Origin: Patescibacteria group bacterium
GTDB taxonomy: Bacteria > Patescibacteriota > Minisyncoccia > Phycocordibacterales > XYD1-FULL-46-19
DNA length: 64,000 nt
Reading direction: 5' to 3'
NCBI GenBank assembly: GCA_022705505.1
Contig: JAKJEI010000001.1
Span: forward strand, 8,157-72,156
A program made the translations under genes and the position numbers. How positions within the stretch are numbered: position 1 is the first letter of the stretch; each line of letters begins with the position of its first letter. The notes under the pieces are model-generated. The model was given only the letters and a program-made list of their open reading frames with translations, had not been told where the DNA came from and searched no databases. Shown here one piece after another: positions 1 to 42,586 of the stretch.

Positions 1-1720
1 TGTAAAATTTGCCGTTCTTGGCTAGTTTGATAATCATTGGGCCGCCACAAACGGGGCACTTGGCGTTGTCGGGCGCTGGACCGAGGTTTGTGATTTTTTC
101 AATCTTTTTTTTGTTGGCGATTTCTTTGGTAAACGGACCATAAAAGTTTTTCAACGTTTTGACATATTCTCTTTTGCCGTCGGCAATATCGTCTAGCTCA
201 TTTTCCATTCCGGCAGTGAAAGAATCGCTGATGTAGTTGTTAAAATATTTCGTCAAAAAATCGCTGACCACTTCGCCGGTATCAGTGGGGACAAGGGACT
301 TATTTTCTTTGATGGTATAACCTCGATCTTGAATGGTTTTGATAATGGCGGCGTAGGTACTTGGTCGGCCAATTCCTCTTTTTTCCAGTTCTTTGACCAA
401 ACCGGCTTCGGTATAACGATGCGGAGGTTCGGTCTCTTTGCCGACAGCTTCTATTTCTTTTAAGACCAAAGTTTCCTTTTCGGTGAGCTTAGGCAACTCC
501 ACGTCTTCTCCACGAGCGGCTGGGTCGGCTTTTAGCCAGCCGTCAAACAGCACTTGAGAGCCATTGGTTTCAAAAGGCGGCACTTTTTGGTCATCAGCTT
601 CAGCTGAAACTTTAGTGCGTAAAATTTTGGCGTCAGCCATTTGGCTGGCTATCGCTCGTTGCCAAATTAATTGATATAATTTTTTTTCCTGCGGATTGCC
701 GCCGGCTGATTTTAGACTGGTGTGAGTGGGGCGAATTGCCTCATGCGCTTCTTGAGCATTTTTACTTTTTGTCTTGTGGGTTCTTGGTGAGGCGTAGTTT
801 GAACCAAACTCTTTGTTTATGGTCAAGATAATTTCACTGACCGCCGTTTTGCTTAAATTGGTGCTATCGGTGCGCATATAGGTAATGTGACCAGCCTCGT
901 AAAGTTTTTGGGCTAGCCGCATGGTAACGCTTGGCGCGTAGCCGAAGCGTGAAGAGGCCGCTTGTTGTAGGGTAGAAGTGGTAAATGGCGCGCGCGGGGA
1001 GCGTTTAGCCTCGGTTTCTGTAACATTGGCGATTTGCCAAACGGCCTCGCGGGCGGCGGTAACAATTTCTTCGGCTCGCTCGGCTGTTTTAGGTTCCTCG
1101 CGACATTCAAAAGGCAGGACTTGTCCGTTTTTGGTTTGAAAATTGGCGCTTATCACCCAAAAATTTTCCGGCACAAAAGCGCGAATTTCTTTTTCGCGTT
1201 CAACCAAGATGCGCAGGGCGGGTGATTGGACTCGTCCGGCTGATAAACCGTAACGTACTTTTTGCCAGATTAAAGCCGACAAGTCATAACCAAATAAGCG
1301 ATCTAGAACGCGACGTGCCTCTTGCGCTAACCGCAAATTTTCGTCAATGGCGCGGGGGTGTTTGATTGCTTCCTTGACTGCCTGCTCCGTAATTTCGTGG
1401 AAAACAATTCGCTTGGGATTTTTTAGACCAATCGCTTCTTTGACGTGCCAAGCGATTGCTTCGCCTTCGCGGTCGGGGTCGGTCGCCAGAACAATCTCGT
1501 CAGCTTTTTTGGCCAGCTGTTTTAAATCGGAAACGACTTTTTCTTTGCCGGGCGAAATTACATAACTGGGAGCAAAACCGTTTTCTATATCAATAGCGTT
1601 TTTGTTTGACTTAGGCAGGTCGCGAATGTGGCCAACACTCGCCTTGACGGTGTAGGCGTTATCCAAATATTTACTGATTGTTTTAGCTTTGGCCGGCGAC
1701 TCAACGATTAATAATTTCAT
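1..1720 (-). CDS. topA: DNA topoisomerase I, partial; C-terminal part runs off the window start
   Basis: Reverse-strand translation from the ATG at 1720 gives MKLLIVESPAKAKTISKYL...ATDPDREGEAIAWH...GYTIKEN, the TOPRIM and type IA topoisomerase motifs. The ORF continues past position 1, so it is absent from the ORF track. Confidence 0.9.
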   Translation of the reverse strand, partial: MKLLIVESPAKAKTISKYLDNAYTVKASVGHIRDLPKSNKNAIDIENGFAPSYVISPGKEKVVSDLKQLAKKADEIVLATDPDREGEAIAWHVKEAIGLKNPKRIVFHEITEQAVKEAIKHPRAIDENLRLAQEARRVLDRLFGYDLSALIWQKVRYGLSAGRVQSPALRILVEREKEIRAFVPENFWVISANFQTKNGQVLPFECREEPKTAERAEEIVTAAREAVWQIANVTETEAKRSPRAPFTTSTLQQAASSRFGYAPSVTMRLAQKLYEAGHITYMRTDSTNLSKTAVSEIILTINKEFGSNYASPRTHKTKSKNAQEAHEAIRPTHTSLKSAGGNPQEKKLYQLIWQRAIASQMADAKILRTKVSAEADDQKVPPFETNGSQVLFDGWLKADPAARGEDVELPKLTEKETLVLKEIEAVGKETEPPHRYTEAGLVKELEKRGIGRPSTYAAIIKTIQDRGYTIKENKSLVPTDTGEVVSDFLTKYFNNYISDSFTAGMENELDDIADGKREYVKTLKNFYGPFTKEIANKKKIEKITNLGPAPDNAKCPVCGGPMIIKLAKNGKFY

Positions 1721-1825
1721 ACAAACAAATTTTTAAAAAAATTAAAATTATTTAACAGTTTAGCAAGTATTATATAAATTAAGTAATAAGTCAAAAATTG
1801 AAAGTTGAGAGCTGCATAAAAATTT

Positions 1826-2698
1826 TTAGTTTTTTAGGTGTATTTCTCCCATGGCTTCTTTGATCAGGCCTCTTATCTCCATCATCGACAATGTAATATT
1901 GGCTTGACTCGGTTTCAAGCCCGACTTGGCAATCAAGGCCTCCTTATCCAAAGATTCAATTTGTAATAACTCAAGGATTATTTTTTCGTCAGGTGATAAG
2001 TCTGAAAAATTAAGGTCGACCTTGTTATCCTCTTGTGTTTGTAACCCCAGGGCCACCAAAACATCTTCGGCGGAGGTGACCGGGATAGCCCCTTGTTTAA
2101 TCAGCCAGTTGGGGCCATGGGAATTTGGTGAAAAAATTGAACCCGGAACCGCTAAAACATCCCGGTTATATTCGGTGGCTAGTCTGGCGGTGATTAGAGT
2201 GCCGGATTTGGCGCCGGCCTCTATAATTAAAGTTGCTTTTGACAAGCCGGCCATCAGGCGATTTCTTTGGGGAAAGGTATAAAGCGTGGCTGCTTGATTT
2301 GGTTCGTATTCAGACAAGAGTCCGCCGCCCGCTGCCACAATTTTTTCGGCCAAGCGGCGATTGGCTGAGGGGTAGAGAACCTTCTGGTCTAAACCGGAGC
2401 CGGGAAGAGCCAAAGTTTTTAAGCCGACCTGCAGCGCTGCTTGGTGGGCCAAAGAATCTATCCCCAAGGCTAGGCCGGAGACAATGGTAATCGGCTGTCC
2501 TCCCAGACCGAAAATAATTTTTTCCACAACCTCGCGGCCATAAGAGGAATATTTGCGGGAGCCAACCACGCAGAGCAGATATTCTTTTTTACAGTCGGCA
2601 AGTTCTCCGACCAAATAAAGAGACTTCGGTGGTTGAGGGATTTCTTGTAACGGGCCCGGGATTTCTTGTCGGGGGATTTTTTTGATGAGCCAATCCAT
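1826..2698 (-). CDS. dprA: DNA processing protein DprA (Smf)
   Basis: 290 aa with Rossmann-like DprA core (VVGSRKYSSYG...GLALGIDSLAHQAAL...GGLLSEYEP...RNRLMAGLS...LIIEAG.KSGTLITA). The dprA-topA adjacency is a conserved pairing. Confidence 0.85.
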   Translation of the reverse strand: MDWLIKKIPRQEIPGPLQEIPQPPKSLYLVGELADCKKEYLLCVVGSRKYSSYGREVVEKIIFGLGGQPITIVSGLALGIDSLAHQAALQVGLKTLALPGSGLDQKVLYPSANRRLAEKIVAAGGGLLSEYEPNQAATLYTFPQRNRLMAGLSKATLIIEAGAKSGTLITARLATEYNRDVLAVPGSIFSPNSHGPNWLIKQGAIPVTSAEDVLVALGLQTQEDNKVDLNFSDLSPDEKIILELLQIESLDKEALIAKSGLKPSQANITLSMMEIRGLIKEAMGEIHLKN

Positions 2699-2777
2699 TG
2701 GTCTTTATTTTAACAGATTTTTGTAAAATTATTTAAAGTCTTTGTTTTTTGGACTGTGATTTGCTAATATTATCAAT

Positions 2778-4040
2778 ATGTTGGACATAAAGTTTATCCG
2801 TGAAAATAAAGCCATAATCAAAGAGGCCGCGCGCAAAAAGCTCTTGGATTTTGACGTGGAGGCTTTATTGGAAGCGGATAACCAGAGACTAAAGTTAGTA
2901 GGTGAGGTTGAGAAGTTGCGCGCGCGTCAAAATGAGGCAAGTCACAGGATTGCCAAAGTTAAAGACGAGGCTGAGCGAGATGAGTTGATTGAGCAAATGA
3001 AAGATGTTAAAACTTTGCGCGAGGGAAAAGAGGAAGAACTGAAGCAAGTGCTGGAGACCTGGAAGAGTTTATTGCTAAAAGTGCCAAACATTCCCGACAT
3101 TTCAGTGCCGGAAGGCAAAGATGATAGTGAAAACCAGCAGATTAAAATTTGGGGGGACCGCCCCAAGTTTGAGTTTGCCCCCAGAGGTCACGTTGAATTG
3201 ATGACCAATTTAAAATTGGCTGATTTTGAACGGGGGGTCAAGGTTGCCGGTTTTCGTGGCTACTTTTTAAAAAATGAAGCAGTTTTGTTATCAATGGCGG
3301 CTTGGCAACATGCTATGAAAATTGCTCTAGAGGGCGGTTTTGTTCCTCTTTTGACACCTGTCTTGGATCGACCGGAAAACTTCATGGGGACAGGATATTT
3401 GCCTGACGGCGAAGAAGATTTATATAAAACCCAAGACGGTGATTATTTGGCCGGCACGGCCGAGGTCCCGACGATGGGCTATCATTTTGATGAAATTGTG
3501 CCGGCGGATCGTTTGCCGTATAAATTTATCGCTTTTTCTCCTTGTTACCGTCGCGAAGCGGGTAGCCACGGTAAGGATACTCAAGGTTTAATTCGTGTTC
3601 ATGAGTTTTATAAGGTAGAACAAGTAGTGTTATGCGAAGCAAGCCACGAAGAGAGTGTCAATTGGCATGAAAAATTGTTGGCCAACGCCGAGCGTTTTAT
3701 GCAAGACTTGAAAATTCCATATCGGGTGGTAGTTAATTGCACCGGTGATTTGGGCCAAGGCCAGGTCAAAAAATATGATATAGAAGCTTGGGTGCCATCG
3801 GAAGGGAAGTTCCGCGAGACTCATTCTATTTCTTATTTTCATGATTTCCAGGCGCGACGTTTGAACACTCGTTACCGAGACAGTGAAGGCAAACTTCGCT
3901 TTGTTCATTCTTTGAACGGCACCCTGGTGGCTTCGCCGCGAATCCTCGTTTCGCTCTTAGAAAATTATCAACAAGCCGATGGTTCCGTTGTCGTGCCGGA
4001 GGTTTTGCAACCATATCTTGGCAAAGATGTCATAAAATAA
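2778..4040 (+). CDS. serS: seryl-tRNA synthetase
   Basis: 420 aa with an N-terminal coiled coil and class II core motifs (FSPCYRREAGS..., GTLVASPRILVSLLENYQ). Confidence 0.95.
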   Translation: MLDIKFIRENKAIIKEAARKKLLDFDVEALLEADNQRLKLVGEVEKLRARQNEASHRIAKVKDEAERDELIEQMKDVKTLREGKEEELKQVLETWKSLLLKVPNIPDISVPEGKDDSENQQIKIWGDRPKFEFAPRGHVELMTNLKLADFERGVKVAGFRGYFLKNEAVLLSMAAWQHAMKIALEGGFVPLLTPVLDRPENFMGTGYLPDGEEDLYKTQDGDYLAGTAEVPTMGYHFDEIVPADRLPYKFIAFSPCYRREAGSHGKDTQGLIRVHEFYKVEQVVLCEASHEESVNWHEKLLANAERFMQDLKIPYRVVVNCTGDLGQGQVKKYDIEAWVPSEGKFRETHSISYFHDFQARRLNTRYRDSEGKLRFVHSLNGTLVASPRILVSLLENYQQADGSVVVPEVLQPYLGKDVIK

Positions 4041-4046
4041 AAAGTC

Positions 4047-4919
4047 ATGGCGGCGCCCAAAAGCAAGCGTGACATTTTAAGAAGGTCAAAGGAACGCGAA
4101 CAAAAAATGCGCAAGTTCCGGCTTGGTGGAGGTTTTTTGTTGGTGGCCATTATTGTCGGCAGTTTTTTGGGACTTTTGAATTGGAATTTTTTCTGCTTCA
4201 ACACCGTGATTGTCGCGGGAGAGACAAACGAAAACAAAGAAGCAATCCAAACTTATGTTTTGGAAAGTATCGCCGGTCGTTATTTGGGAGTAGTGCCCAA
4301 GGATAGCGTCTTTTTTCTGCGTAAAAAGATTTTGGCTGAAGCGGTTAAACATCATTTCCCCAGATTGAAAGATGTTCAGGTCAGCTTGCCGGAACTCAAC
4401 ACTTTAAAAATTTCAGTTGAGGACAAGGAGGCGAAACTTGTTTGGTGCGATGGCCAAGATGGTAAAAAAAGCGGTCATTGTTATTACCTCAACGAGGACG
4501 GTGAAGTTTACTCCGAAGCCCCCAATTTTTCGGAAGCTGTTATGACGGAAATCATCGCTCCTTTGCCGGAATTGCCGATTGGTAAAATTGTCCTTGCTTC
4601 AAGCACCGTCGAGAAAATCCAAGTTTTGGCCAGTGCCGGAGGACGTTTATTAAATGGGTTGCCCGGGGGCTACGCGCCTGACCTTGTGTCTTGGCAGCCA
4701 TTGACGGCCGGTGATTGGGCGGGGCGAGTCGCGGACCGAGAAGGCCGGGTCTGGCGAATCTTGTTCAACGAAAAAAGCAAGGCCGCTGATTTGGTTGGCG
4801 GTTTGGGTTCTATCCTAAAAAACGAAACTTTTCTTACTGACTGGTCCAGACAAAAGGGCCGTCTTGAATATATCGACCTAAGGTTCCCGCAAAAGATATT
4901 CTATCGTTTTATCCAGTAG
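4047..4919 (+). CDS. membrane protein with FtsQ/DivIB-like POTRA region (hypothetical)
   Basis: Basic N-terminus, one TM segment (FLLVAIIVGSFLGLL), then a POTRA-like stretch (VIVAGETNENKEAIQTYVLESIAGRYLGVVPKDSVFFLRKKILAEAVKHHFPRLKDVQVSL). Not located in a dcw cluster. Confidence 0.35.
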   Translation: MAAPKSKRDILRRSKEREQKMRKFRLGGGFLLVAIIVGSFLGLLNWNFFCFNTVIVAGETNENKEAIQTYVLESIAGRYLGVVPKDSVFFLRKKILAEAVKHHFPRLKDVQVSLPELNTLKISVEDKEAKLVWCDGQDGKKSGHCYYLNEDGEVYSEAPNFSEAVMTEIIAPLPELPIGKIVLASSTVEKIQVLASAGGRLLNGLPGGYAPDLVSWQPLTAGDWAGRVADREGRVWRILFNEKSKAADLVGGLGSILKNETFLTDWSRQKGRLEYIDLRFPQKIFYRFIQ

Positions 4920-11317: not shown

Positions 11318-12322
11318 ATGAAATTCAAACATTTTTCGATTGAGGAGCGTGAGAAAGTTCAAGAATTGCTTTGGCAAAAGATCTCAATCAGAAGTATCGC
11401 TAAAGCAATTGGTCGATCCCCATCATCTGTCTCAAGGGAAATTAAGCGAAACAATCCTCCATTGAGAAATCTATATACTCCACGACTTGCTCACCAAAGA
11501 GCTCTAGAAAGTCGCACAAATCGTGGCAGAAAAATGAGATTGAAAAACGGATTCATCCGCAGGTATGTCGCAGGTGGTTTGAAAGCAGGGCTCTCTCCCG
11601 AACAAATATCTGGTAGGTTACATTTAGAATACCCAAAAGAATCGATTTCATACGAAGCAATATACAGATACATATATTCTCAAGTTCACAGAGAAGGATA
11701 TGGATATATGAAATCTGGGTATCAGGACCTTAGAAAATATTTGAAACGCAGGCACAAACAGAGGCAGAAGAAAGGAATGAGAAAAGCACAGAGGATATTT
11801 AGACCAGAGATTCCTTCGATTGAGCAGAGACCAAAAGAAATTGAGACAAGAAAAACACTTGGTCACTGGGAAACTGATTCCGTGATTTCAAGGAAAAGCT
11901 TGGTTGGACTCAATACCCTTGTCGAAAGAAAAACAGGTCTAGTTTTCATCTCTAGAATTGAAAATTTAAAAGCCGAAACAACAAAAAATACAATTGTTGC
12001 AAGACTTAGTTCGCTTCCAGCTGAAGTTCGAAAAACGGTGACGTCTGACAATGGAAAAGAAAACTTTCTGTTTGACTCTGTGATGACTGAGCTTGGAATC
12101 ATGTGGTTCTTTGCTCATCCATATCACTCGTGGGAGAGAGGAACAAACGAAAACACCAACGGTCTCATCCGTTGGTACTTCCCAAAAGGCACAGATTTTG
12201 CCACAATTAGTGACGAAGAGATACAAGCGGTTGAAACCGCTCTAAACAATCGTCCAAGGAAGCGACTTGGCTGGAAGACTCCATTAGAAGCATTTAATGA
12301 AAGTGTTGCATTAACAGGTTGA
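11318..12322 (+). CDS. IS30 family transposase
   Basis: N-terminal HTH (IRSIAKAIGRSPSSVSREIKRN), then DDE motifs: GHWETDSV, TSDNGKEN, HPYHSWERGTNENTNGLIRWYFPKGTDF. Confidence 0.85.
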   Translation: MKFKHFSIEEREKVQELLWQKISIRSIAKAIGRSPSSVSREIKRNNPPLRNLYTPRLAHQRALESRTNRGRKMRLKNGFIRRYVAGGLKAGLSPEQISGRLHLEYPKESISYEAIYRYIYSQVHREGYGYMKSGYQDLRKYLKRRHKQRQKKGMRKAQRIFRPEIPSIEQRPKEIETRKTLGHWETDSVISRKSLVGLNTLVERKTGLVFISRIENLKAETTKNTIVARLSSLPAEVRKTVTSDNGKENFLFDSVMTELGIMWFFAHPYHSWERGTNENTNGLIRWYFPKGTDFATISDEEIQAVETALNNRPRKRLGWKTPLEAFNESVALTG

Positions 12323-12339: not shown

Positions 12340-12368
12340 TTGCATTTTTTGCTAAAATATGCTATAAT
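12340..12368 (+). promoter_or_regulatory. consensus sigma70-like promoter (TTGCAT-N17-TATAAT) at the junction of the two IS30 elements
   Basis: ttgcat at 12340-12345, a 17-nt spacer, then tataat at 12363-12368. It faces rightwards into the 3' end of the minus-strand transposase of element B. Confidence 0.4.
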
Positions 12369-12391: not shown

Positions 12392-13351
12392 CTAACCCCT
12401 CAAGCCGAACACAGATTGATAATTTAATTCTAACTCATTGGCGGTGAAATAACCAAGGCATCGTCTGGGTCGGTCATTCAAGAAGGTATGGATTTCTGCC
12501 AATTCTTCTTGAGTCACTGAACCGATATCTCTTCTTTTGGCGATAAAACATCTAATCCACCGATTAGTGTTTTCCACCAGTCCTTTCTCCCAAGAGTGAT
12601 ATGGGTGACAGAAATATATGCTAACATTTAAGAGTTCCTCAATATTTTGCCATTTGAGGAACGCTATATCGTTGTCAGTGGTTAGGCTTAAAAGAGGTTG
12701 ACCACTGAAAGTTTGCCGAAGCGCGTCACAAATTGTGGCGTGCTTTCGGTTTGGCAACTTAATCAACCAACTTTTCTTCAAGAAGCGATCCACGATCACC
12801 AATAAAACCCGGGGGCTTTGTTTAGAAACGATAAAGTCCATTTCATAATGACCGGGTTCTGTCACTTCTGGTCGCAATTCTATATACTTTCGACCATCGA
12901 TTGGGTTGCCGTAACGGTACTGTTTGCGACCTGATTTCTTGTTGTGTCGGCTCCAAAACAACTTGTATTCCCAACCACGACTGCCAATGAACTTATAGAT
13001 GGCTTTGGTTGAAACTGTGATATTTTGTCTTTTTAAATAACCGCTCATTTGTTCCGGAGACCATTTTTTATTCAATTTCTCCTCTACAAAACGATAGAGA
13101 AACATATCCATCACCACTTTCAGAGATTGGGTTTTGGAATATTTGCGCTTCACATATGACTTGTGAGCGGCTTTCTTTGCTATATACTGGCCCTTGACCG
13201 AATTCCTTTTAATTTCATTGCTAATTGTACTTGGACTGCGTCCAAGTATGAGGGCAATACCACGAATAGTGATAGATGCCAAAAGCAGTTTTTCAATGAC
13301 GTATCGTTCCGCCAAAGATAAATGCTTATATTTGTTTTTAATTTTTGCCAT
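12392..13351 (-). CDS. IS30 family transposase (second, divergent copy)
   Basis: HTH (IRGIALILGRSPSTISNEIKRN), then DDE motifs: HYEMDFIV, LTTDNDIAF, HPYHSWEKGLVENTNRWIRCFIAKRRDI. Confidence 0.85.
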   Translation of the reverse strand: MAKIKNKYKHLSLAERYVIEKLLLASITIRGIALILGRSPSTISNEIKRNSVKGQYIAKKAAHKSYVKRKYSKTQSLKVVMDMFLYRFVEEKLNKKWSPEQMSGYLKRQNITVSTKAIYKFIGSRGWEYKLFWSRHNKKSGRKQYRYGNPIDGRKYIELRPEVTEPGHYEMDFIVSKQSPRVLLVIVDRFLKKSWLIKLPNRKHATICDALRQTFSGQPLLSLTTDNDIAFLKWQNIEELLNVSIYFCHPYHSWEKGLVENTNRWIRCFIAKRRDIGSVTQEELAEIHTFLNDRPRRCLGYFTANELELNYQSVFGLRG

Positions 13352-18375: not shown

Positions 18376-19133
18376 CAAAGGACGAACGGAAATACTTAGA
18401 TTGGCTCAAAAAAGACAAATATGACGGCCAGGCAAGAGCGGCCAGCCTCGCGGTTGATTTGGGTCGGTTGCGCGCGGGCGAACCGCTTGATTATGTCATT
18501 GGTTGGCGTCCGTTTTTGGGTTGTAAGATTGTTTTGACTGAACGGCCACTCATTCCGCGAGAAGAAACTGAATATTGGGCCAAAGAGGCGATTGAGGAAA
18601 TTAAAAAAGACAAACGACCGAAAATAAAATGCTTGGACATTTTTACCGGTTCCGGCTGTGTTGGGCTGGCAGTTTTAGCCAACGCAAAAAACACGGTTGT
18701 AACTTTTGCCGACAAAAGTCCGCGGGCGTTAAAATCGGTCAGAAAAAATTTAAAAGTGAATAGTTTCCAAATCGGGTCCCATCGCGCCAAGGTGGTGGAA
18801 AGTGACGTTTTTTCCGGTCTCTCCGACCAATTTGACTATATTTTTGCCAACCCGCCTTATATTCCGCTGGGTCGGAAATTGCCGGAGTCGGTTTCGCGAT
18901 ATGAGCCGCGCGAGGCTTTGCGCGCCGGCCGAGATGGTCTGCTATTTATCAAGCGGTTTCTTGTCCAGGCTCCTGCTCATTTGGTGGAGGGTGGTAAAAT
19001 CTATTTAGAGTTTGGTTATGGCCAAAAAAAAGCAGTTGACATTCTTTTGAAAAAAATCGGTTTTGGTTCTTGGGTTTTTGGCAAGGACCAATTTGGTCGT
19101 TGCCGTTTTGCAATAATCAAAAATTCACGCTAG
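18372..19133 (+). CDS. prmC: release factor glutamine N5-methyltransferase
   Basis: GWRPFLGCKIVLTERPLIPR.ETE...FANPPYIP (NPPY motif). Overlaps the upstream gene by 4 nt. Confidence 0.85.
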   Translation: MTKDERKYLDWLKKDKYDGQARAASLAVDLGRLRAGEPLDYVIGWRPFLGCKIVLTERPLIPREETEYWAKEAIEEIKKDKRPKIKCLDIFTGSGCVGLAVLANAKNTVVTFADKSPRALKSVRKNLKVNSFQIGSHRAKVVESDVFSGLSDQFDYIFANPPYIPLGRKLPESVSRYEPREALRAGRDGLLFIKRFLVQAPAHLVEGGKIYLEFGYGQKKAVDILLKKIGFGSWVFGKDQFGRCRFAIIKNSR

Positions 19134-19298
19134 AATAATAAAAAGAAGCTATGAAAAATTACGCCAAAGTAGGAGGCAAAATCAACCGGCCCGGTTATCG
19201 GACGCCATCCACTTTTAAAATCAAGCAGAACCAAAAAGTTGAAAAACGGCGAATTCGTAATTTTAAACCAAAATAAAAAACTAATAATTTAAAAAATT

Positions 19299-36326: not shown

Positions 36327-36611
36327 ATTTTACAAAATAAATTGCTGATAATTTTAAAAACGACTAAATTTATTGCTGTTTTAATTAATCATGAATTTTA
36401 TGAAGTTTCTATTAAAATCGGCTGAACTACTTTTATTAAAGCGCTCAGCCAGGAGTTTTTATTAAAAAGCTGGCAAACATATCTTGATTTGTTTTTTTTT
36501 GCGCGTAAAACTTTTTAACTCTTTTACAATTTATAAAAGATTTGTTATATTTACATTTGAAAATAGTCTAAAATTGGACTATGGTGTCGTGGGCAAGAGT
36601 TTTCTGGTCAA

Positions 36612-36684
36612 GGGCCATTAGCTCATTTGGTAGAGCGCTCCCATGGCATGGGAGAGGTGACCGGTTCGATTCCGGTATGGTCCA
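36612..36684 (+). tRNA. tRNA-Ala (anticodon GGC)
   Basis: GGGCCATTAGCTCATTTGGTAGAGCGCTCCCATGGCATGGGAGAGGTGACCGGTTCGATTCCGGTATGGTCCA folds as a perfect cloverleaf with G3:U70. Confidence 0.9.
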
Positions 36685-36685
36685 C

Positions 36686-36913
36686 ATGTTTAAAGAATTT
36701 TTTGTTAAAAAAATGTTGCAATCTAAGGGCGTGTCTAAAGAACAAATCGAGCCCTTGATGGCGATTGTCAAGAAAAATCCGGCTTTTTTTCAACAAATTG
36801 CCGGTGAAATTGAAGAAAAAGTCAAAAAAAATAAGGTTGACCATATGACGGCGACAATGGAAATCATCAATAATCACCGCGACGAATTGCAAAAACTGCT
36901 AACGGACAAATAA
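36686..36913 (+). CDS. small helical hypothetical protein (75 aa) starting 2 nt after the tRNA-Ala 3' end
   Basis: MFKEFFVKKMLQSKGVSKEQIEPLMAIVKKNPAFFQQIAGEIEEKV.... The track ORF at 36581 runs through the tRNA and is rejected in favour of this internal ATG. Confidence 0.4.
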   Translation: MFKEFFVKKMLQSKGVSKEQIEPLMAIVKKNPAFFQQIAGEIEEKVKKNKVDHMTATMEIINNHRDELQKLLTDK

Positions 36914-37212: not shown

Positions 37213-38313
37213 ATGAATATTTCTGTTGGTATTGTTGGTTTACCTAACGTGGGGAAGTCCACGCTTTTTAACGCTCTCACCAGAAAAGGCGTGCCGGCCG
37301 AAAATTATCCTTTTTGCACCATTGACCCATCGGTTGGGATCGTGCCGGTACCTGATGAGCGAGTCGGTTTGTTGGCGGATTTTTCTAAGTCCGCCAAACA
37401 AATTCCAGCGGTGATTGAGTTTGTGGATATTGCTGGCTTGGTCAAAGGCGCGTCGGCTGGTGAAGGTTTGGGCAATCAATTTTTGCAACATATCCGCGAA
37501 GTGGACGTCATCGCCGAAGTGGTACGCGTTTATGAAGACTCCAATATTGCTCACGTTTCCGGTCGGATTGACCCGATTGATGATATTGAAACGATCAACC
37601 TGGAACTGGTCTTGTCTGATTTGCAGACCGTCAGCAAACGAATGGCGAGCCTCGCGCGCGATGTCAAACGCGGCGACAAGGCCGCTGTTGCCGAAAATAT
37701 GATTTTGCTCAAGTTGGAAGAAATTCTTAAAGCCGGTCAAATGGTTTCCTCTCACCTTGCAATGCTCATGCATTCTCAAGAGCGCGAAAATGCCGCAAAT
37801 GTGTTAAAGAATCTCCATCTTTTGTCGGCAAAACCAATCTTGTATGTTTTGAATAAAAAGCATGGTGGCCAAATGATTGAGACGAAACCAACAGAAGATT
37901 TTATTACCAAACTTGGCGCTAAGTTTGTGGTGGTGGATGCCAAGATAGAAGGCGAGTTGTCCGAGCTGGAAATAGATGACCGCGCGGAATTTAAACAAGG
38001 CCTGGGGGTGGAGGATGACGGCGTTAACGATTTGATAAAAGCCAGTTATGAGCTTTTAGGTTTGGAAACGTATTTTACGACCGGTCCTGATGAAACGCGC
38101 GCTTGGACGATAAAAAAAGGCTCCACCGCGCCGGAGGCGGGTTTGGCGATCCATACTGATTTCAAAGAAAAGTTTATTCGCGCTGAAGTGGTGTTTTGGC
38201 AAGATTTGCTTGAAGCCGGTTCTTATGCTGCCGCGCGCGAGAAAGGTTTGGTCAGAACTGAAGGCAAAGAATATGTCGTCAAAGATGGGGATGTGATTGA
38301 ATTTAAAATCTAG
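37213..38313 (+). CDS. ychF: ribosome-binding ATPase YchF
   Basis: VGIVGLPNVGKSTLFNALT with a TGS/YchF C-terminus. Confidence 0.95.
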   Translation: MNISVGIVGLPNVGKSTLFNALTRKGVPAENYPFCTIDPSVGIVPVPDERVGLLADFSKSAKQIPAVIEFVDIAGLVKGASAGEGLGNQFLQHIREVDVIAEVVRVYEDSNIAHVSGRIDPIDDIETINLELVLSDLQTVSKRMASLARDVKRGDKAAVAENMILLKLEEILKAGQMVSSHLAMLMHSQERENAANVLKNLHLLSAKPILYVLNKKHGGQMIETKPTEDFITKLGAKFVVVDAKIEGELSELEIDDRAEFKQGLGVEDDGVNDLIKASYELLGLETYFTTGPDETRAWTIKKGSTAPEAGLAIHTDFKEKFIRAEVVFWQDLLEAGSYAAAREKGLVRTEGKEYVVKDGDVIEFKI

Positions 38314-38332
38314 CAATTAATTATAGAACAAT

Positions 38333-38471
38333 AAAAAAAACCGCAAGAAACGCTTGAGCAGGGCGTGCGGGGTTGTTCGCTTATCGCTACTTAATCCCAA
38401 TCTTGCGGTGGCCAATTTGTGACGGTCTTGCCTTCTCCTCGCGAGAGATTGGCTAGTCTCCTCCTGCGAGT
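38333..38471 (-). ncRNA. candidate small RNA (~140 nt) with consensus promoter and U-tract terminator
   Basis: On the minus strand: -35 TTGCAC (38506-38501), 17-nt spacer, -10 TAGAAT (38483-38478). The 3' end has CCGCAAGA...UCUUGCGG pairing followed by U8 (the plus-strand A-run at 38333-38340). No ORF of substance. RNA family not identified. Confidence 0.35.
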
Positions 38472-38542
38472 AACCAGATTCTAGCAGAGGGAAAACAAAC
38501 GTGCAATAATTGCCGCCCGGGAGTATAATAATTGATAATCTT

Positions 38543-39148
38543 ATGGTCTTGTCTTTATTTGTTTTAATTTTAATAATTATTGTCGTTTTATTAATTGTTT
38601 TTAATAATATGCAAAATAAAAACATTCTTAAATGGGCTTTGGTTATTGGCATTATCATCGTGCTTAACCTTTTCTTCCATTTTGCAACGCGGTTGGTTTA
38701 TAAAATTCCGGAGTATGAAGATTTTTGCCAATCAAAACAAGTAGAGATTCGCCCGGATACTGAGGAATCTTGCGTCGCCGAAGGTGGCGCTTGGATTACG
38801 CCGGCCAAAGAATATTATGAAGAAGCGCCGATGACTCCGCCGATCGGCGCCGAAAAAGCATATTGCGATCCCACTTACACTTGCCGCCAAGAGTTTGAAG
38901 ATGTCAGAGATGTCTATCAACGCAATGTCTTTGTTGTGATGGTTGTTCTTGGCCTCGTTTCTTTGATTCTTGGCTTTGCCCTGGCGGCCAATGAAGCTAT
39001 TTCGCTCGGTTTGTCTTATGGCGGTATTTTGTCGTTCATCATTGCCTCTATTCAATATTGGTCGGCCATGGATGATTATTTGCGGGTGATAATTCTGGCC
39101 TTGGCCTTGGCCATCTTGATTTACCTGGGATACCGGAAATTCAAATAA
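38543..39148 (+). CDS. integral membrane protein, hypothetical
   Basis: Hydrophobic N- and C-terminal helices around a Cys-containing soluble loop. The track ORF starts at a TTG at 38510; the ATG at 38543 is preferred. Confidence 0.5.
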   Translation: MVLSLFVLILIIIVVLLIVFNNMQNKNILKWALVIGIIIVLNLFFHFATRLVYKIPEYEDFCQSKQVEIRPDTEESCVAEGGAWITPAKEYYEEAPMTPPIGAEKAYCDPTYTCRQEFEDVRDVYQRNVFVVMVVLGLVSLILGFALAANEAISLGLSYGGILSFIIASIQYWSAMDDYLRVIILALALAILIYLGYRKFK

Positions 39149-39265: not shown

Positions 39266-42200
39266 ATGCCCTCAAAAAAACCCGCTGCCAAATCTCAAGC
39301 TTCAAGTAAGTATGACCATAAAAAGATAGAACCGAAATGGCAAAAAGTCTGGCGTCAGTCAGATATTTACCGCGTCAAGGAAGACAAGAAAAAAGACAAG
39401 GCTTATGTTTTGGACATGTTTCCGTATCCATCAGGCGAGGGTTTGCATGTTGGTCACCCCAAAGGCTATATCGCGACCGATATCTATTCTCGTTACAAAC
39501 GGATGAAGGGCTTTAATGTTTTGCATCCCATGGGCTGGGACGCTTTTGGTTTGCCCGCCGAAAATTATGCCATAAAAAATAAGATTCACCCCGAGACCGC
39601 TGTCAAAAAAAACATCAAACGTTTTAAGGAACAGTTGGAAATTATCGGTTTTGATTATGATTGGTCTCGCGAGATAAACACCACTGACCCCAAATACTAT
39701 AAATGGACTCAATGGATTTTTTTGCAATTGTGGCAAAAGGGCTTGGCTTATCAATCCTATGAACCGATTAACTGGTGTCCGTCTTGCAAAACCGGTTTAG
39801 CTAATGAGGATTTGGAGGATGGTAAGTGTGAGCGTTGCGGTTCAGAGGTGGAAAAGAAGCCAATGCGTCAGTGGGTGCTCAAAATTACCGATTATGCCGA
39901 ACGTTTGTTAGAGGATTTGGAAGACTTGGCCTGGCCTGAATCAATCAAAGAGTCCCAACGCAACTGGATTGGCCGAAGTGAGGGCATAGAAATAGATTTT
40001 GAACTTAAAACCAAGAAGCTGAGATATGTTTTTTTGCACGGTTTTAAGAGCGGACCGAATCGTTGTTGGTTCCCATGGCTTAAACGTGAACTGGAAAAAC
40101 GCGGGCACGAGGTAGTGGTGCCGGCCCTGCCAAACCCTTTTTTGCCGGATGTCGTCAACCAGACGGAATTTGTGCTGGAAAATGTTTCTTTTGACGAAAA
40201 CACGGTTTTGGTTGGGCATAGTTTGGGGACAGTTGTCGGCTTGCGTGTTTTGGAACGTCTCAAGAAACCAATTAAAAAATTTGTGGCAGTTTCTGGTTTG
40301 GTGGAACCAAAGTTCAAAGACAAAGACCGCCCGGCTGCCGCTTTTTTGATAAATTGGGACTTTGATTTTGCCAAAATTAAAAAAAATGCCGGCGACGTTG
40401 TTATTTTGGAAGACCAGACTGACTATTTGATAAATCAAAATCAAGGAGAAAATCTGGAGGCCAAGCTGAATGGCCGACTAGTTCGCTTTGAAGCGAAAAG
40501 AACTCATACTTGCGGTACGGTGGAGCCAGTGGTGCTAGAAAATGTTTTGGATACGGTGAAAGTTTTTACGACGCGCGCCGATACGCTTTTTGGCGCCACT
40601 TACGTGGTCTTGGCGCCGGAGCATAATTTTGTTCAGAAAAATTTGTCAAAGTTTGACAACAAATCAGAAATCCAAAAGTATCAAAAACAAGCCACTAAAC
40701 AAAGCGAGATAGCCCGCATCGCGGAAACCAAAGAAAAAACCGGTGTTCAATTGAAAGGCGCGGTCGCGGTTAACCCGGCCAATGGCCGTGAAGTCCCTGT
40801 TTTTATCGCTGACTATGTTTTGCCGGATTACGGCACCGGCGCGGTGATGGCGGTACCGGCGCATGATGAGCGTGATTTCGCCTTTGCCAAGAAATATAAA
40901 CTGCCAATTATTCAGAGTATTGCCAAGAAGAACGCGCCAATCAAAAGTTACCTCATGGGCGCAAACCAGATTTCTGATGGTGAATTGGAAGAAGTTGGCG
41001 CCAAGATTTACGAAAAGAAGCCGGACGGCGACCGTCTCTTGGTTTTATCAGCAAAAAAGTTGCCAGCCTACGAAAAATTGATCAGCGAAAAAATGACCGC
41101 TGGCTATTGGAATGAATATGTGGGCAAGGAAATTGTTTTTCTTTTTAAGGATAAAAAAGATCGGGTGACCAAGATTGTTTTGACACCGGAAACTGCGGAG
41201 GAGGTTGATAAGTTGGCAAATGAATTTTCTGCAGACAAAAAAAGAAAATTTGTTTCGCCTTGGACCTGGCTGGCGGAAAATGATTGGTATAAAGATTTAA
41301 TTATCCATACTGAAGCGGGTGTTTTGGTTAATGCCGGTAAAAAATTCACCGGTCTTTCAAGCGAGAAAGCCAAGTTGGCGGTTTCGCGCTATGTGCGAGG
41401 CAAACAAGTTGTTAAATACAAACTTCGTGACTGGGTCTTTTCGCGTCAACGTTATTGGGGCGAGCCAATCCCGGTTGTTCATTGCGACAAATGCGGAGTC
41501 GTGCCGGTGCCGGAAGACAAGCTGCCGGTCAAGTTGCCGAAGGTCAAAAGTTATGCCCCAACCGACACGGGCGAATCACCTTTGGTCGATATTGAAAAAT
41601 GGGTCAAAACCAAATGTCCGGCTTGCAGCGGACCGGCTAAACGCGAAACCAACACAATGCCGCAATGGGCGGGTTCTTCTTGGTATTATTTGCGTTATCT
41701 GGACCCGAAGAATGAGACTGCTTTGGTTAGCCAAGACAAAGAAAAATATTGGCAAGAAGTTGATGTCTATGTCGGTGGAACCGAGCATGCCACTAGACAT
41801 TTGATCTATGCGCGTTTTTGGCACAAGTTTTTGTATGACCTCGGTGTGGTGAGCCGACCGGAACCTTTTGCCAAACTCAAGAACCAAGGTTTGATTTCCG
41901 GGAGTGACGGCCGCAAAATGTCTAAGCGTTGGGGAAACGTGGTTAACCCTGACGATGTCGTAAAATCTTACGGCGCCGATAGTTTGCGTGTCTATGAAAT
42001 GTTTATGGGCCCATTTGAAGCCGGCGCTTCTTGGCAAACTGAAAATATGATTGGCGCGCGTCGTTTTCTGGAAAAAGTTTGGCAGTTGTCGAAAAAAGTG
42101 GAATCTCAGAAAGGCGACAGCCTGCTGGTTGTTCAAGTCCACGAGACAATCAAAAAAGTTGGCAAGGATATCACGGACTTTGCCTTCAATACCGCTATTT

Positions 42201-42586
42201 CTGCCTTGATGATTTTGGTCAACGAGTTAGAAAAACAGCCGACAGTCAGTCGAACTGATTTTGAGAATTTACTTAAGCTTTTGGCGCCGTTTGCCCCGCA
42301 CTTGTCTGAAGAATTATGGTCACAGTTAGGGCACAAAACCTCTATTCATTTGGCGCCGTGGCCGACCTATGACGCTCAAAAGACCGTCAAGCAAGAGCTC
42401 AAAATTATGATACAAGTAAATAGCAAAATAAGAGACAAAATTGTTGTGCCAGCGAGCGCTAGTGAAGAAGAAATTCTCAAGCAGGCTCGGGCAAGCGCCG
42501 GCGCGAAGCGATGGCTTGAAGGGCAGACAATTAAAAAAGCTTTTTATGTGAAAGGCCGTCTAGTTAATTTTGTAACCAATAAGTAG
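39266..42586 (+). CDS. leuS: leucyl-tRNA synthetase with an inserted alpha/beta-hydrolase-like module
   Basis: HIGH-region (PYPSGEGLHVGHPKGY), CP1 editing motifs (TTRADTLFGATY, PAHDERDFAFAKKY), and KMSKR near RKMSKRWGN. At 1106 aa it is about 250 aa longer than usual. Confidence 0.95.
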   Translation: MPSKKPAAKSQASSKYDHKKIEPKWQKVWRQSDIYRVKEDKKKDKAYVLDMFPYPSGEGLHVGHPKGYIATDIYSRYKRMKGFNVLHPMGWDAFGLPAENYAIKNKIHPETAVKKNIKRFKEQLEIIGFDYDWSREINTTDPKYYKWTQWIFLQLWQKGLAYQSYEPINWCPSCKTGLANEDLEDGKCERCGSEVEKKPMRQWVLKITDYAERLLEDLEDLAWPESIKESQRNWIGRSEGIEIDFELKTKKLRYVFLHGFKSGPNRCWFPWLKRELEKRGHEVVVPALPNPFLPDVVNQTEFVLENVSFDENTVLVGHSLGTVVGLRVLERLKKPIKKFVAVSGLVEPKFKDKDRPAAAFLINWDFDFAKIKKNAGDVVILEDQTDYLINQNQGENLEAKLNGRLVRFEAKRTHTCGTVEPVVLENVLDTVKVFTTRADTLFGATYVVLAPEHNFVQKNLSKFDNKSEIQKYQKQATKQSEIARIAETKEKTGVQLKGAVAVNPANGREVPVFIADYVLPDYGTGAVMAVPAHDERDFAFAKKYKLPIIQSIAKKNAPIKSYLMGANQISDGELEEVGAKIYEKKPDGDRLLVLSAKKLPAYEKLISEKMTAGYWNEYVGKEIVFLFKDKKDRVTKIVLTPETAEEVDKLANEFSADKKRKFVSPWTWLAENDWYKDLIIHTEAGVLVNAGKKFTGLSSEKAKLAVSRYVRGKQVVKYKLRDWVFSRQRYWGEPIPVVHCDKCGVVPVPEDKLPVKLPKVKSYAPTDTGESPLVDIEKWVKTKCPACSGPAKRETNTMPQWAGSSWYYLRYLDPKNETALVSQDKEKYWQEVDVYVGGTEHATRHLIYARFWHKFLYDLGVVSRPEPFAKLKNQGLISGSDGRKMSKRWGNVVNPDDVVKSYGADSLRVYEMFMGPFEAGASWQTENMIGARRFLEKVWQLSKKVESQKGDSLLVVQVHETIKKVGKDITDFAFNTAISALMILVNELEKQPTVSRTDFENLLKLLAPFAPHLSEELWSQLGHKTSIHLAPWPTYDAQKTVKQELKIMIQVNSKIRDKIVVPASASEEEILKQARASAGAKRWLEGQTIKKAFYVKGRLVNFVTNK

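Follow-up and report, generated by a model that had tools for sequence, protein, structure and literature searches.

An rRNA-like hairpin loop in a predicted small RNA encoded beside ychF in Paceibacterota

Known RNAs of similar design

Among the described RNAs closest in design to the one considered here are the leaders of ribosomal-protein operons (L1, L10, L20 and S8/spc). In these, a short RNA copies a hairpin or loop of rRNA, the stem covaries and the loop is kept. The leaders lie in the 5' UTR of the operon that they regulate and act in cis. 6S RNA and CsrB/RsmZ are independent small transcripts with an intrinsic terminator, which mimic the nucleic-acid ligand of a protein. 6S RNA forms a long rod by pairing of its two ends, with a large bubble at the centre, and CsrB displays many GGA motifs in hairpin loops. 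A further comparison is with the trans-encoded sRNAs, intergenic transcripts of ~140 nt with their own promoter, a terminator hairpin and a U tail. No described small or regulatory RNA was found in the literature on Patescibacteria, Parcubacteria or the candidate phyla radiation (CPR).

The locus described here comes from a member of the Paceibacterota, within the CPR, that recurs in metagenomes of anaerobic digesters and activated sludge. The whole stretch of DNA analysed, 64,000 nt (64 kb) long, is called the window below. Within the 229-nt spacer between ychF and a membrane-protein gene, the minus strand carries a unit, convergent with ychF, that had been proposed from its signals to encode an uncharacterised sRNA. 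That reading is supported by absence from Rfam, by homologues in which the spacing of the signals is kept, by covariation and by under-substitution between strains. From these sequence comparisons, the unit is quite probably a real RNA gene of a new, undescribed family.

The likeness to the ribosomal-protein leaders lies in a covarying stem that carries a kept, rRNA-like loop. The unit differs from them in being free-standing: it has a promoter and a terminator of its own, no gene follows it, and it has no Rfam leader match. With 6S RNA and CsrB/RsmZ it would share, by analogy, the mechanism proposed below, but it matches none of them in sequence or in Rfam. The rod and bubble of 6S RNA are absent from its predicted folds, and it is without the loop arrangement of CsrB: its 139 nt contain four GGA motifs, near the ~2.7 that we estimate from composition, and these fall mostly in predicted stems. 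It has the length, intergenic position and signals of a trans-encoded sRNA. Unlike these, however, it has a terminator stem that closes a structured domain of 50-65 nt with an rRNA-like loop, and no complementary target was found.

A search of Rfam 15, which the original prediction had suggested as a check, found no match on either strand of the window locus at gathering thresholds or, in 351 nt, at E <= 10. The failure to recognize SRP RNA, 6S RNA, tmRNA or RNase P by eye therefore holds with the Rfam covariance models, and the same is true of 5S RNA. ARAGORN found no tRNA or tmRNA. For the two homologues described below, there was again no Rfam match at gathering thresholds and nothing relevant at E <= 10 (401-nt search).

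The locus

The features of the locus are collected in Table 1. Past the RNA unit, nothing lies downstream on the minus strand but the convergent ychF, and no second copy of the unit was found elsewhere in the 64-kb window.

Table 1. Features of the candidate RNA gene (window positions) and contents of the corresponding slot in related genomes (positions of the contig named)
Feature	Sequence	Position	Strand	Remarks
ychF		37213-38313	+	upstream gene of the spacer
Membrane-protein gene, 201 aa		likeliest start ATG 38543		divergent from the RNA unit; leuS comes after
-35 hexamer	TTGCAC	38506-38501	-	from the sequence
-10 hexamer	TAGAAT	38483-38478	-	from the sequence; 17 nt between -35 and -10
Extended -10	TGCTAGAAT (TGn + TAGAAT)	38478..38486	-	from the sequence
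Predicted RNA, ~139 nt		38333..38471	-	putative start ~7 nt after the -10; end at the last U
5' hairpin	CUCGCAGGAGGAGA and CUCUCGCGAGGAGA	38438..38470	-	purine-rich direct repeats; from the fold and direct repeat D3
Hb helix	GGC / GCC	38432-38430 / 38412-38410 (38410..38432)	-	encloses a 17-nt linker; L045 GUCCG/CGGAU, L120 GUCC/GGAC
3' domain closed by P1		38340..38409	-	inverted repeat; P1 identical in three lineages
P1, 9-bp perfect inverted repeat	ACCGCAAGA / UCUUGCGGU	38409-38401 / 38348-38340	-	invariant in window, L045 and L120
P1 stem core	CCGCAAGA / UCUUGCGG	38408-38401 / 38348-38341	-	9 bp with A38409-U38340
P2 helix	UUG / CAA			L045 GUCUUGG/CUAAGAC, L120 GUUUGGG/CCCAAAC
P3 hairpin	GGAUU / AACCC	38397-38393 / 38374-38370 (38370..38397)	-	one A.C mismatch; L045 GGACU/AGUCC, L120 GGAAC/GUUCC
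P3 loop, 18 nt	AAGUAGCGAUAAGCGAAC	38392-38375	-	
U8 tract		38333..38340	-	from the sequence
L092 slot		4081-4159		80-nt spacer, nothing else
L093 and L094 slots		L093 4081-4507; L094 1442-1862	-	64-aa zinc-ribbon gene; TTGCAT-17-TAATAT at the equivalent place
L091 slot		1210-1568	+	80-aa gene
L011 slot		2068-2586		103-aa gene
L022 slot		1316-2855		three genes: a GNAT acetyltransferase and two others
L092, L015, L026 and L124 slots				empty of small genes; spacers of some relatives 30-90 nt

The leuS gene (39266-42586, plus strand) encodes an unusually long LeuRS of 1106 aa. Its insert gives faint Pfam matches to alpha/beta-hydrolases (Abhydrolase_1/6, Ser_hydrolase) and is also present in the LeuRS of L091 (1109 aa). 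On the other side of the spacer, a 110-aa ORF at 36581-36913 (plus strand), which is annotated as a gene in several metagenome contigs, overlaps a tRNA on the same strand (36612-36684). Other callers give this ORF 75-78 aa, and the long form is probably a miscalled start.

Promoter and terminator signals

The promoter from which the gene was proposed, TTGCAC-N17-TAGAAT on the minus strand, is present. Its -35 hexamer agrees with the Escherichia coli consensus TTGACA at three of six positions, and a generic consensus scan omits the site. On the two strands of the 64 kb, the class TTGCAN-N16-18-TANNNT has only five members, fewer than the 8.8 that shuffled sequence would give. Non-coding DNA, 8.8% of the window, contains four of them completely; the remaining one runs over the 3' terminal bases of a gene and stands just before a 41-codon ORF. 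A TGn extension of the -10 box is common to many other likely promoters in the window.

The 41-codon ORF, which is unlisted, follows the promoter-like sequence TTGCAA-17-TAGAAT by 15 nt (19108-19277, plus strand) and encodes a very basic peptide, MKNYAKVGGKINRPGYRTPSTFKIKQNQKVEKRRIRNFKPK, which may be a small ribosomal or nucleic-acid-binding protein. Elsewhere on the plus strand (12340-12368), a strong promoter-like sequence, TTGCAT-17-TGcTATAAT, occupies a 69-nt gap between convergent genes (11318-12322, plus strand; 12392-13351, minus strand). Transcription from this site would run into the 3' end of the minus-strand gene in antisense orientation, and the sequence beyond the site yielded no terminator.

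The -35 hexamer of the RNA reads GTGCAA on the plus strand, where it stands 17 nt upstream of a TATAAT (38524-38529) that ends 13 nt before the ATG of the membrane-protein gene and is the likely promoter of that gene. The spacing of TATAAT and ATG, 11-13 nt, is kept in four relatives (L091-L094). The two promoters thus stand back to back over 38501-38543 with one -35 hexamer in common, and we infer that they may compete.

At the other end, the predicted helix followed by eight U was found ~140 nt past the promoter, the -10 box lying 137 nt upstream of the U tract. P1 has five G-C pairs in its 9-bp stem and the U tract comes directly after it, as in an intrinsic terminator. Its arms are, however, 52 nt apart, against the 3-8-nt loop of an intrinsic terminator, and the site is not listed by a terminator scan. 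P1 is thus the closure of a structured domain rather than a simple terminator hairpin; P1 and the U tract together are a predicted intrinsic terminator. A custom scan required a perfect stem of 8 bp or more, a loop of up to 60 nt and, after the stem, seven or more T in eight; it found three loci in the window (both strands), against a mean of 0.5 in shuffles. Two signals as rare as these, on the same strand and 137 nt apart in a spacer of 229 nt, are therefore unlikely to be an accident.

Coding potential

That the interval has no credible ORF, as originally stated, is borne out by Pfam, by the gene callers and by the leader signals. The 113-aa ORF that covers it has no Pfam match and overlaps the start of the membrane-protein gene on the opposite strand. 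No gene caller places a minus-strand gene in the spacer in any of the 22 same-species contigs listed.

In this organism, a Shine-Dalgarno-like 4-mer is found upstream of just 5 of 57 genes. In 21 of the 57, the start codon is preceded at 3-15 nt (mostly 6-9 nt) by the end of a TATAAT-like box, which suggests that leaderless mRNAs are the rule. These start-proximal boxes are often TGn-extended, for example at the genes starting at 1826 (minus strand), 4047, 4954, 33285, 34790, 51559 and 63364. No start codon is found at leaderless distance from the -10 box of the RNA unit. The 5' part of the RNA holds GGAGG boxes, but these are unlikely to be ribosome-binding sites, because the organism hardly uses Shine-Dalgarno sequences and seems largely leaderless.

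Distant homologues

The spacing of promoter and terminator, which the original prediction had proposed to look for in relatives, is conserved in two distant homologues, each with a TGn -10 box and a U tract of its own. The first, L045, was the only nhmmer match (E = 0.0056 in 1.1 Mb); it comes from a Parcubacteria genome, and its YchF and that of the window are 55% identical. The second, L120, was found with a covariance model, R1, built from the window and L045, at 67.7 bits (E = 3.5e-17). L120 was outside model R1, and its score is independent evidence. A later model scores the three members at 88.6, 95.7 and 101.3 bits, values that are not independent since the members built the model. The YchF proteins of L120 and L045 are 84% identical.

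Both homologues lie on the strand opposite ychF. At the equivalent place, the extended -10 reads TGATACAAT in L045 and TGCTATATT in L120, and the distance from the -10 box to the U tract is 147 and 154 nt respectively, giving a range of 137-154 nt for the family. The closing helix, ACCGCAAG/CUUGCGGU, is identical in the window, L045 and L120; in the homologues, the 3' end consists of P1 followed by U5-G-U4. A -35 box of the TTGCA type is found in the window only among the three lineages. All three have the TGn -10 spacing, P1 and the P3 loop by which the family is recognized.

Gene order around the RNA is partly kept. In L120, as in the window, the RNA is convergent with ychF and ends close to it, ~10 nt past the stop codon; in L045, two minus-strand genes separate RNA and ychF. 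The other flank in L120 is rpmE-prfA, against the membrane-protein gene and leuS in the window. In L045 (5259-5510) and L120 (5375-5605), the promoter region of the RNA is shared with a divergent rpmE, the gene of ribosomal protein L31, after which comes prfA. As rpmE is divergent from the RNA in both, it is outside the leader arrangement. In clade relatives that are without the RNA (L124-L126), rpmE comes directly after ychF with 87 nt between them.

Predicted fold and covariation

The original prediction noted several GC-rich local helices. Such helices are in part borne out, but the folding energy of the whole RNA is no better than that of shuffles (z = -0.1 to -0.3). In the predicted fold of the window RNA, there is no pairing between the two ends; a 5' hairpin is followed by a separately closed 3' domain. 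The 5' hairpin is species-specific and absent from L045 and L120, and the Ha hairpin of these two is in turn absent from the window.

The model common to the three RNAs has a purine-rich (A/G)GAGAA before Hb, a GCAC-containing junction after P3 and a junction of 5-8 nt before the 3' arm of P1. It lies only 3.5-8 kcal/mol above the unconstrained minimum-energy fold. The covariation analysis with homologous spacers, which had also been suggested as a check, shows that the internal 5-bp helix P3 covaries across the three lineages. When the sequences are anchored on the loop, one pair of P3 is U-A, C-G or A-U and another is U-A, U-A or C-G. In register, 14 of the 15 cells pair, against 4-9 when one arm is slid; counted in alignment A4, all cells (100%) are paired and two pairs are changed on both sides, against 35-56% and none when slid. 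P2 shows two double changes between L045 and L120. Only three lineages carry the family, two of them from one clade, and this covariation rests on few events. P1 never varies and so supports constraint on its sequence, and is no evidence for structure. RNAalifold offered an alternative helix, GUAGCG/CGCAC, which was not adopted: it shows one-sided changes only and, we reason, is sterically incompatible with the covarying P3.

The rRNA-like loop of P3

The loop of P3 follows the consensus AGUAG(C/U)G-NNN-AGCGAA and is 16-18 nt long. The 16-mer of L045, AGUAGCGGCGAGCGAA, is identical at 16 of 16 positions to nt 241-256 of E. coli 23S rRNA, as checked for position and in 5,424 E. coli genomes. 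L120 agrees with this segment at 15 of 16 positions and the window at 13 of 16. By our own arithmetic, the chance of an exact 16-mer between an RNA of 140 nt and an rRNA of 2.9 kb is ~1e-4. Outside the loop, similarity to E. coli 23S rRNA is not significant and the flanks are unrelated.

In E. coli, the segment CCCCC-loop-GGGG of 23S rRNA is predicted to fold as a stem with the same loop. This hairpin (~nt 235-262), which we take to be H13 of domain I, resembles P3 both in loop sequence and in its fold of stem plus loop. The RNA differs from it in being self-contained and closed by P1 and P2, and so has the form of a mimic rather than of a detached rRNA fragment. The literature was searched for protein partners of this 23S hairpin, and nothing useful was found.

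Variation between strains

A second haplotype of the same species is represented by four contigs (L095, L096, L099 and L100), ~97% identical to the window over 3-3.5 kb. Between the haplotypes, there are 30 substitutions in ychF and 34 in the membrane-protein gene, but one in the 139 nt of the RNA body (38418), with two more at the predicted start of the RNA (38474 and 38477). The substitution at 38418 falls in the 17-nt linker of Hb, which varies between lineages too. Four-fold degenerate sites differ by 7-8%, and at that rate a count of 1 in 139 has P = 2e-4 to 8e-4. The neighbouring segment, 38472-38608, has eight changes in 137 nt, as expected at the neutral rate. The RNA body thus appears to be under purifying constraint between strains, on a test that compares just one pair of haplotypes from a population that recombines. 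The recombination is seen in two further contigs, L097 and L098, which over 37512-38418 are mosaics: only part of ychF has the SNPs of the second haplotype in them, and from a point between 38145 and 38418 they follow the haplotype of the window.

Distribution of the family

In the nearest other species (L091-L094, YchF 81-85% identical), the order of ychF and then the membrane-protein gene is kept, and the RNA unit is missing from this slot. What the slot holds instead differs from one relative to the next (Table 1). From the sequences compared, the slot downstream of ychF is hypervariable, filled with unrelated small genes or with nothing.

Searches with blastn, nhmmer and a covariance model of L091-L094 and ~45 further Paceibacteria ychF loci found nothing similar except L045 and L120. 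The family was thus not found near ychF in ~50 other Paceibacteria lineages, the closest relatives of both clades included, among them L118, L119, L122 and L124, which are close to L045. A scan of metagenomes with a seed found just one more contig, from the same species. This absence makes the family patchy and therefore dispensable or mobile. As to a mobile or viral origin, there was no match in phage or plasmid collections. Of three pattern scans of viral contigs, two were empty and the third gave 10 chance matches in coding sequence, with no covariance-model score.

Interpretation and alternatives

The best overall explanation is probably that the unit is an independent gene for an sRNA of ~139 nt, belonging to an undescribed and patchy Paceibacteria family convergent with ychF. 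As to what the RNA does, the most economical proposal is a protein-binding mimic of an rRNA hairpin. A stable transcript of ~139 nt would be made from the minus strand and would present a copy of the 23S hairpin by way of the P3 loop. In that form, the RNA could capture a ribosome-associated protein whose usual binding site is this part of the large-subunit rRNA, and could titrate or regulate it by doing so. That it does work by rRNA mimicry we hold tentatively, as possible but doubtful.

The obvious first candidate for the partner would be YchF, a ribosome-binding ATPase in which a cleft for nucleic acids has been proposed, because it is the only conserved neighbour, a link that is positional only; a large-subunit ribosomal protein would be the alternative. 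The most far-reaching form of the proposal is that the RNA, as a free-standing copy of a universally conserved loop of 23S rRNA, is the natural ligand or regulator of YchF, or of a large-subunit protein that reads the hairpin, and hence the first decoy sRNA to mimic rRNA and the first functional sRNA in the CPR. Taken together, this is decidedly unlikely.

Among the rival explanations, the one that survives best is that the RNA is a regulatory sRNA acting by base-pairing, either in trans on mRNAs through its single-stranded segments or in cis against the complementary read-through of ychF. Its layout is typical of such RNAs, with a 5' hairpin, an unpaired purine-rich linker of 28 nt, a terminator hairpin and a U tail. 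Action in cis would also suit the convergence with ychF, kept in the window and L120, and the plus strand 3' of ychF, where a scan found no terminator before 39172. The linker, however, is the least conserved part of the RNA, both between lineages and between strains. Furthermore, no complement of the conserved loop occurs elsewhere in the 64-kb window, and the RNA has no energetic advantage over shuffled RNAs in duplexes with 57 translation start regions. The two genes that lie between the RNA and ychF in L045 mean that antisense action on ychF cannot be general. We regard base-pairing as unlikely.

The hypervariable slot itself raises a second alternative, in which the unit is decaying or neutral cargo: the remnant of a small protein gene, or else a selfish element, with promoter and terminator kept but of no use to the cell. 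The contents of the slot do differ among relatives. GGAGG boxes resembling Shine-Dalgarno sequences are present in the window unit, which has ATC at the place of the L093 ATG. By eye, the promoter, a GGAG box and CAAT(G/C) line up with the zinc-ribbon gene of L093 and L094. An origin from that gene was nevertheless rejected, as neither local nor anchored alignment showed a similarity beyond that of shuffles (p = 0.16-0.64, not significant). The RNA body is, moreover, strongly under-substituted between strains, and covarying homologues are found where YchF is only ~55% identical, a distance over which a pseudogene would not last in this way. Decay is very unlikely to be the explanation.

The strand may also be questioned. 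The plus strand could carry a Y-shaped structure in the 3' UTR of ychF or between cistrons, which would act in stabilisation, in processing or as a terminator that has no U tract, with the minus-strand signals incidental. In the window, the plus strand of 38340-38409 indeed folds at -27.6 kcal/mol (z = -3.1, with none of 200 shuffles as good), whereas the minus strand folds less well (-19.9 kcal/mol, z = -1.8). This advantage, however, is due to G.U pairs, where the homologues have Watson-Crick pairs at the same positions. L045 shows no such difference between strands (z = -2.7 and -2.4), nor does the element there follow ychF on the plus strand. The TGn -10 box and the U tract are on the minus strand only in all three lineages, and a plus-strand element is highly improbable.

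The least credible alternative is a very small protein, read in a 20-codon frame from ATC 38449 (ISREEKARPSQIGHRKIGIK) or in a 31-codon TTG frame from 38415 through the terminator: a GGAGG does lie 8-10 nt before the ATC and the first residues are loosely like the MSKEE of the L093 protein, but ATC is an unusual start codon in an organism without Shine-Dalgarno usage, the frames are not kept in L045 and L120, whose 5' parts differ, the sole SNP of the body would be non-synonymous (Q to P), and conservation peaks in the 3' domain, outside or across the frames.

Implications

An independent sRNA gene whose family has a conserved promoter, a terminator and a covarying hairpin would be a useful first example for the CPR bacteria. 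The loop shared with 23S rRNA suggests a mechanism that can be tested, namely rRNA mimicry by a free-standing RNA, and the adjacency to ychF suggests a candidate partner. If true, this would give a handle on what YchF recognizes on the ribosome, in an organism in which translation is apparently mostly leaderless. Finally, a patchy family in a hypervariable slot is a marker for the movement of small accessory elements in reduced genomes.
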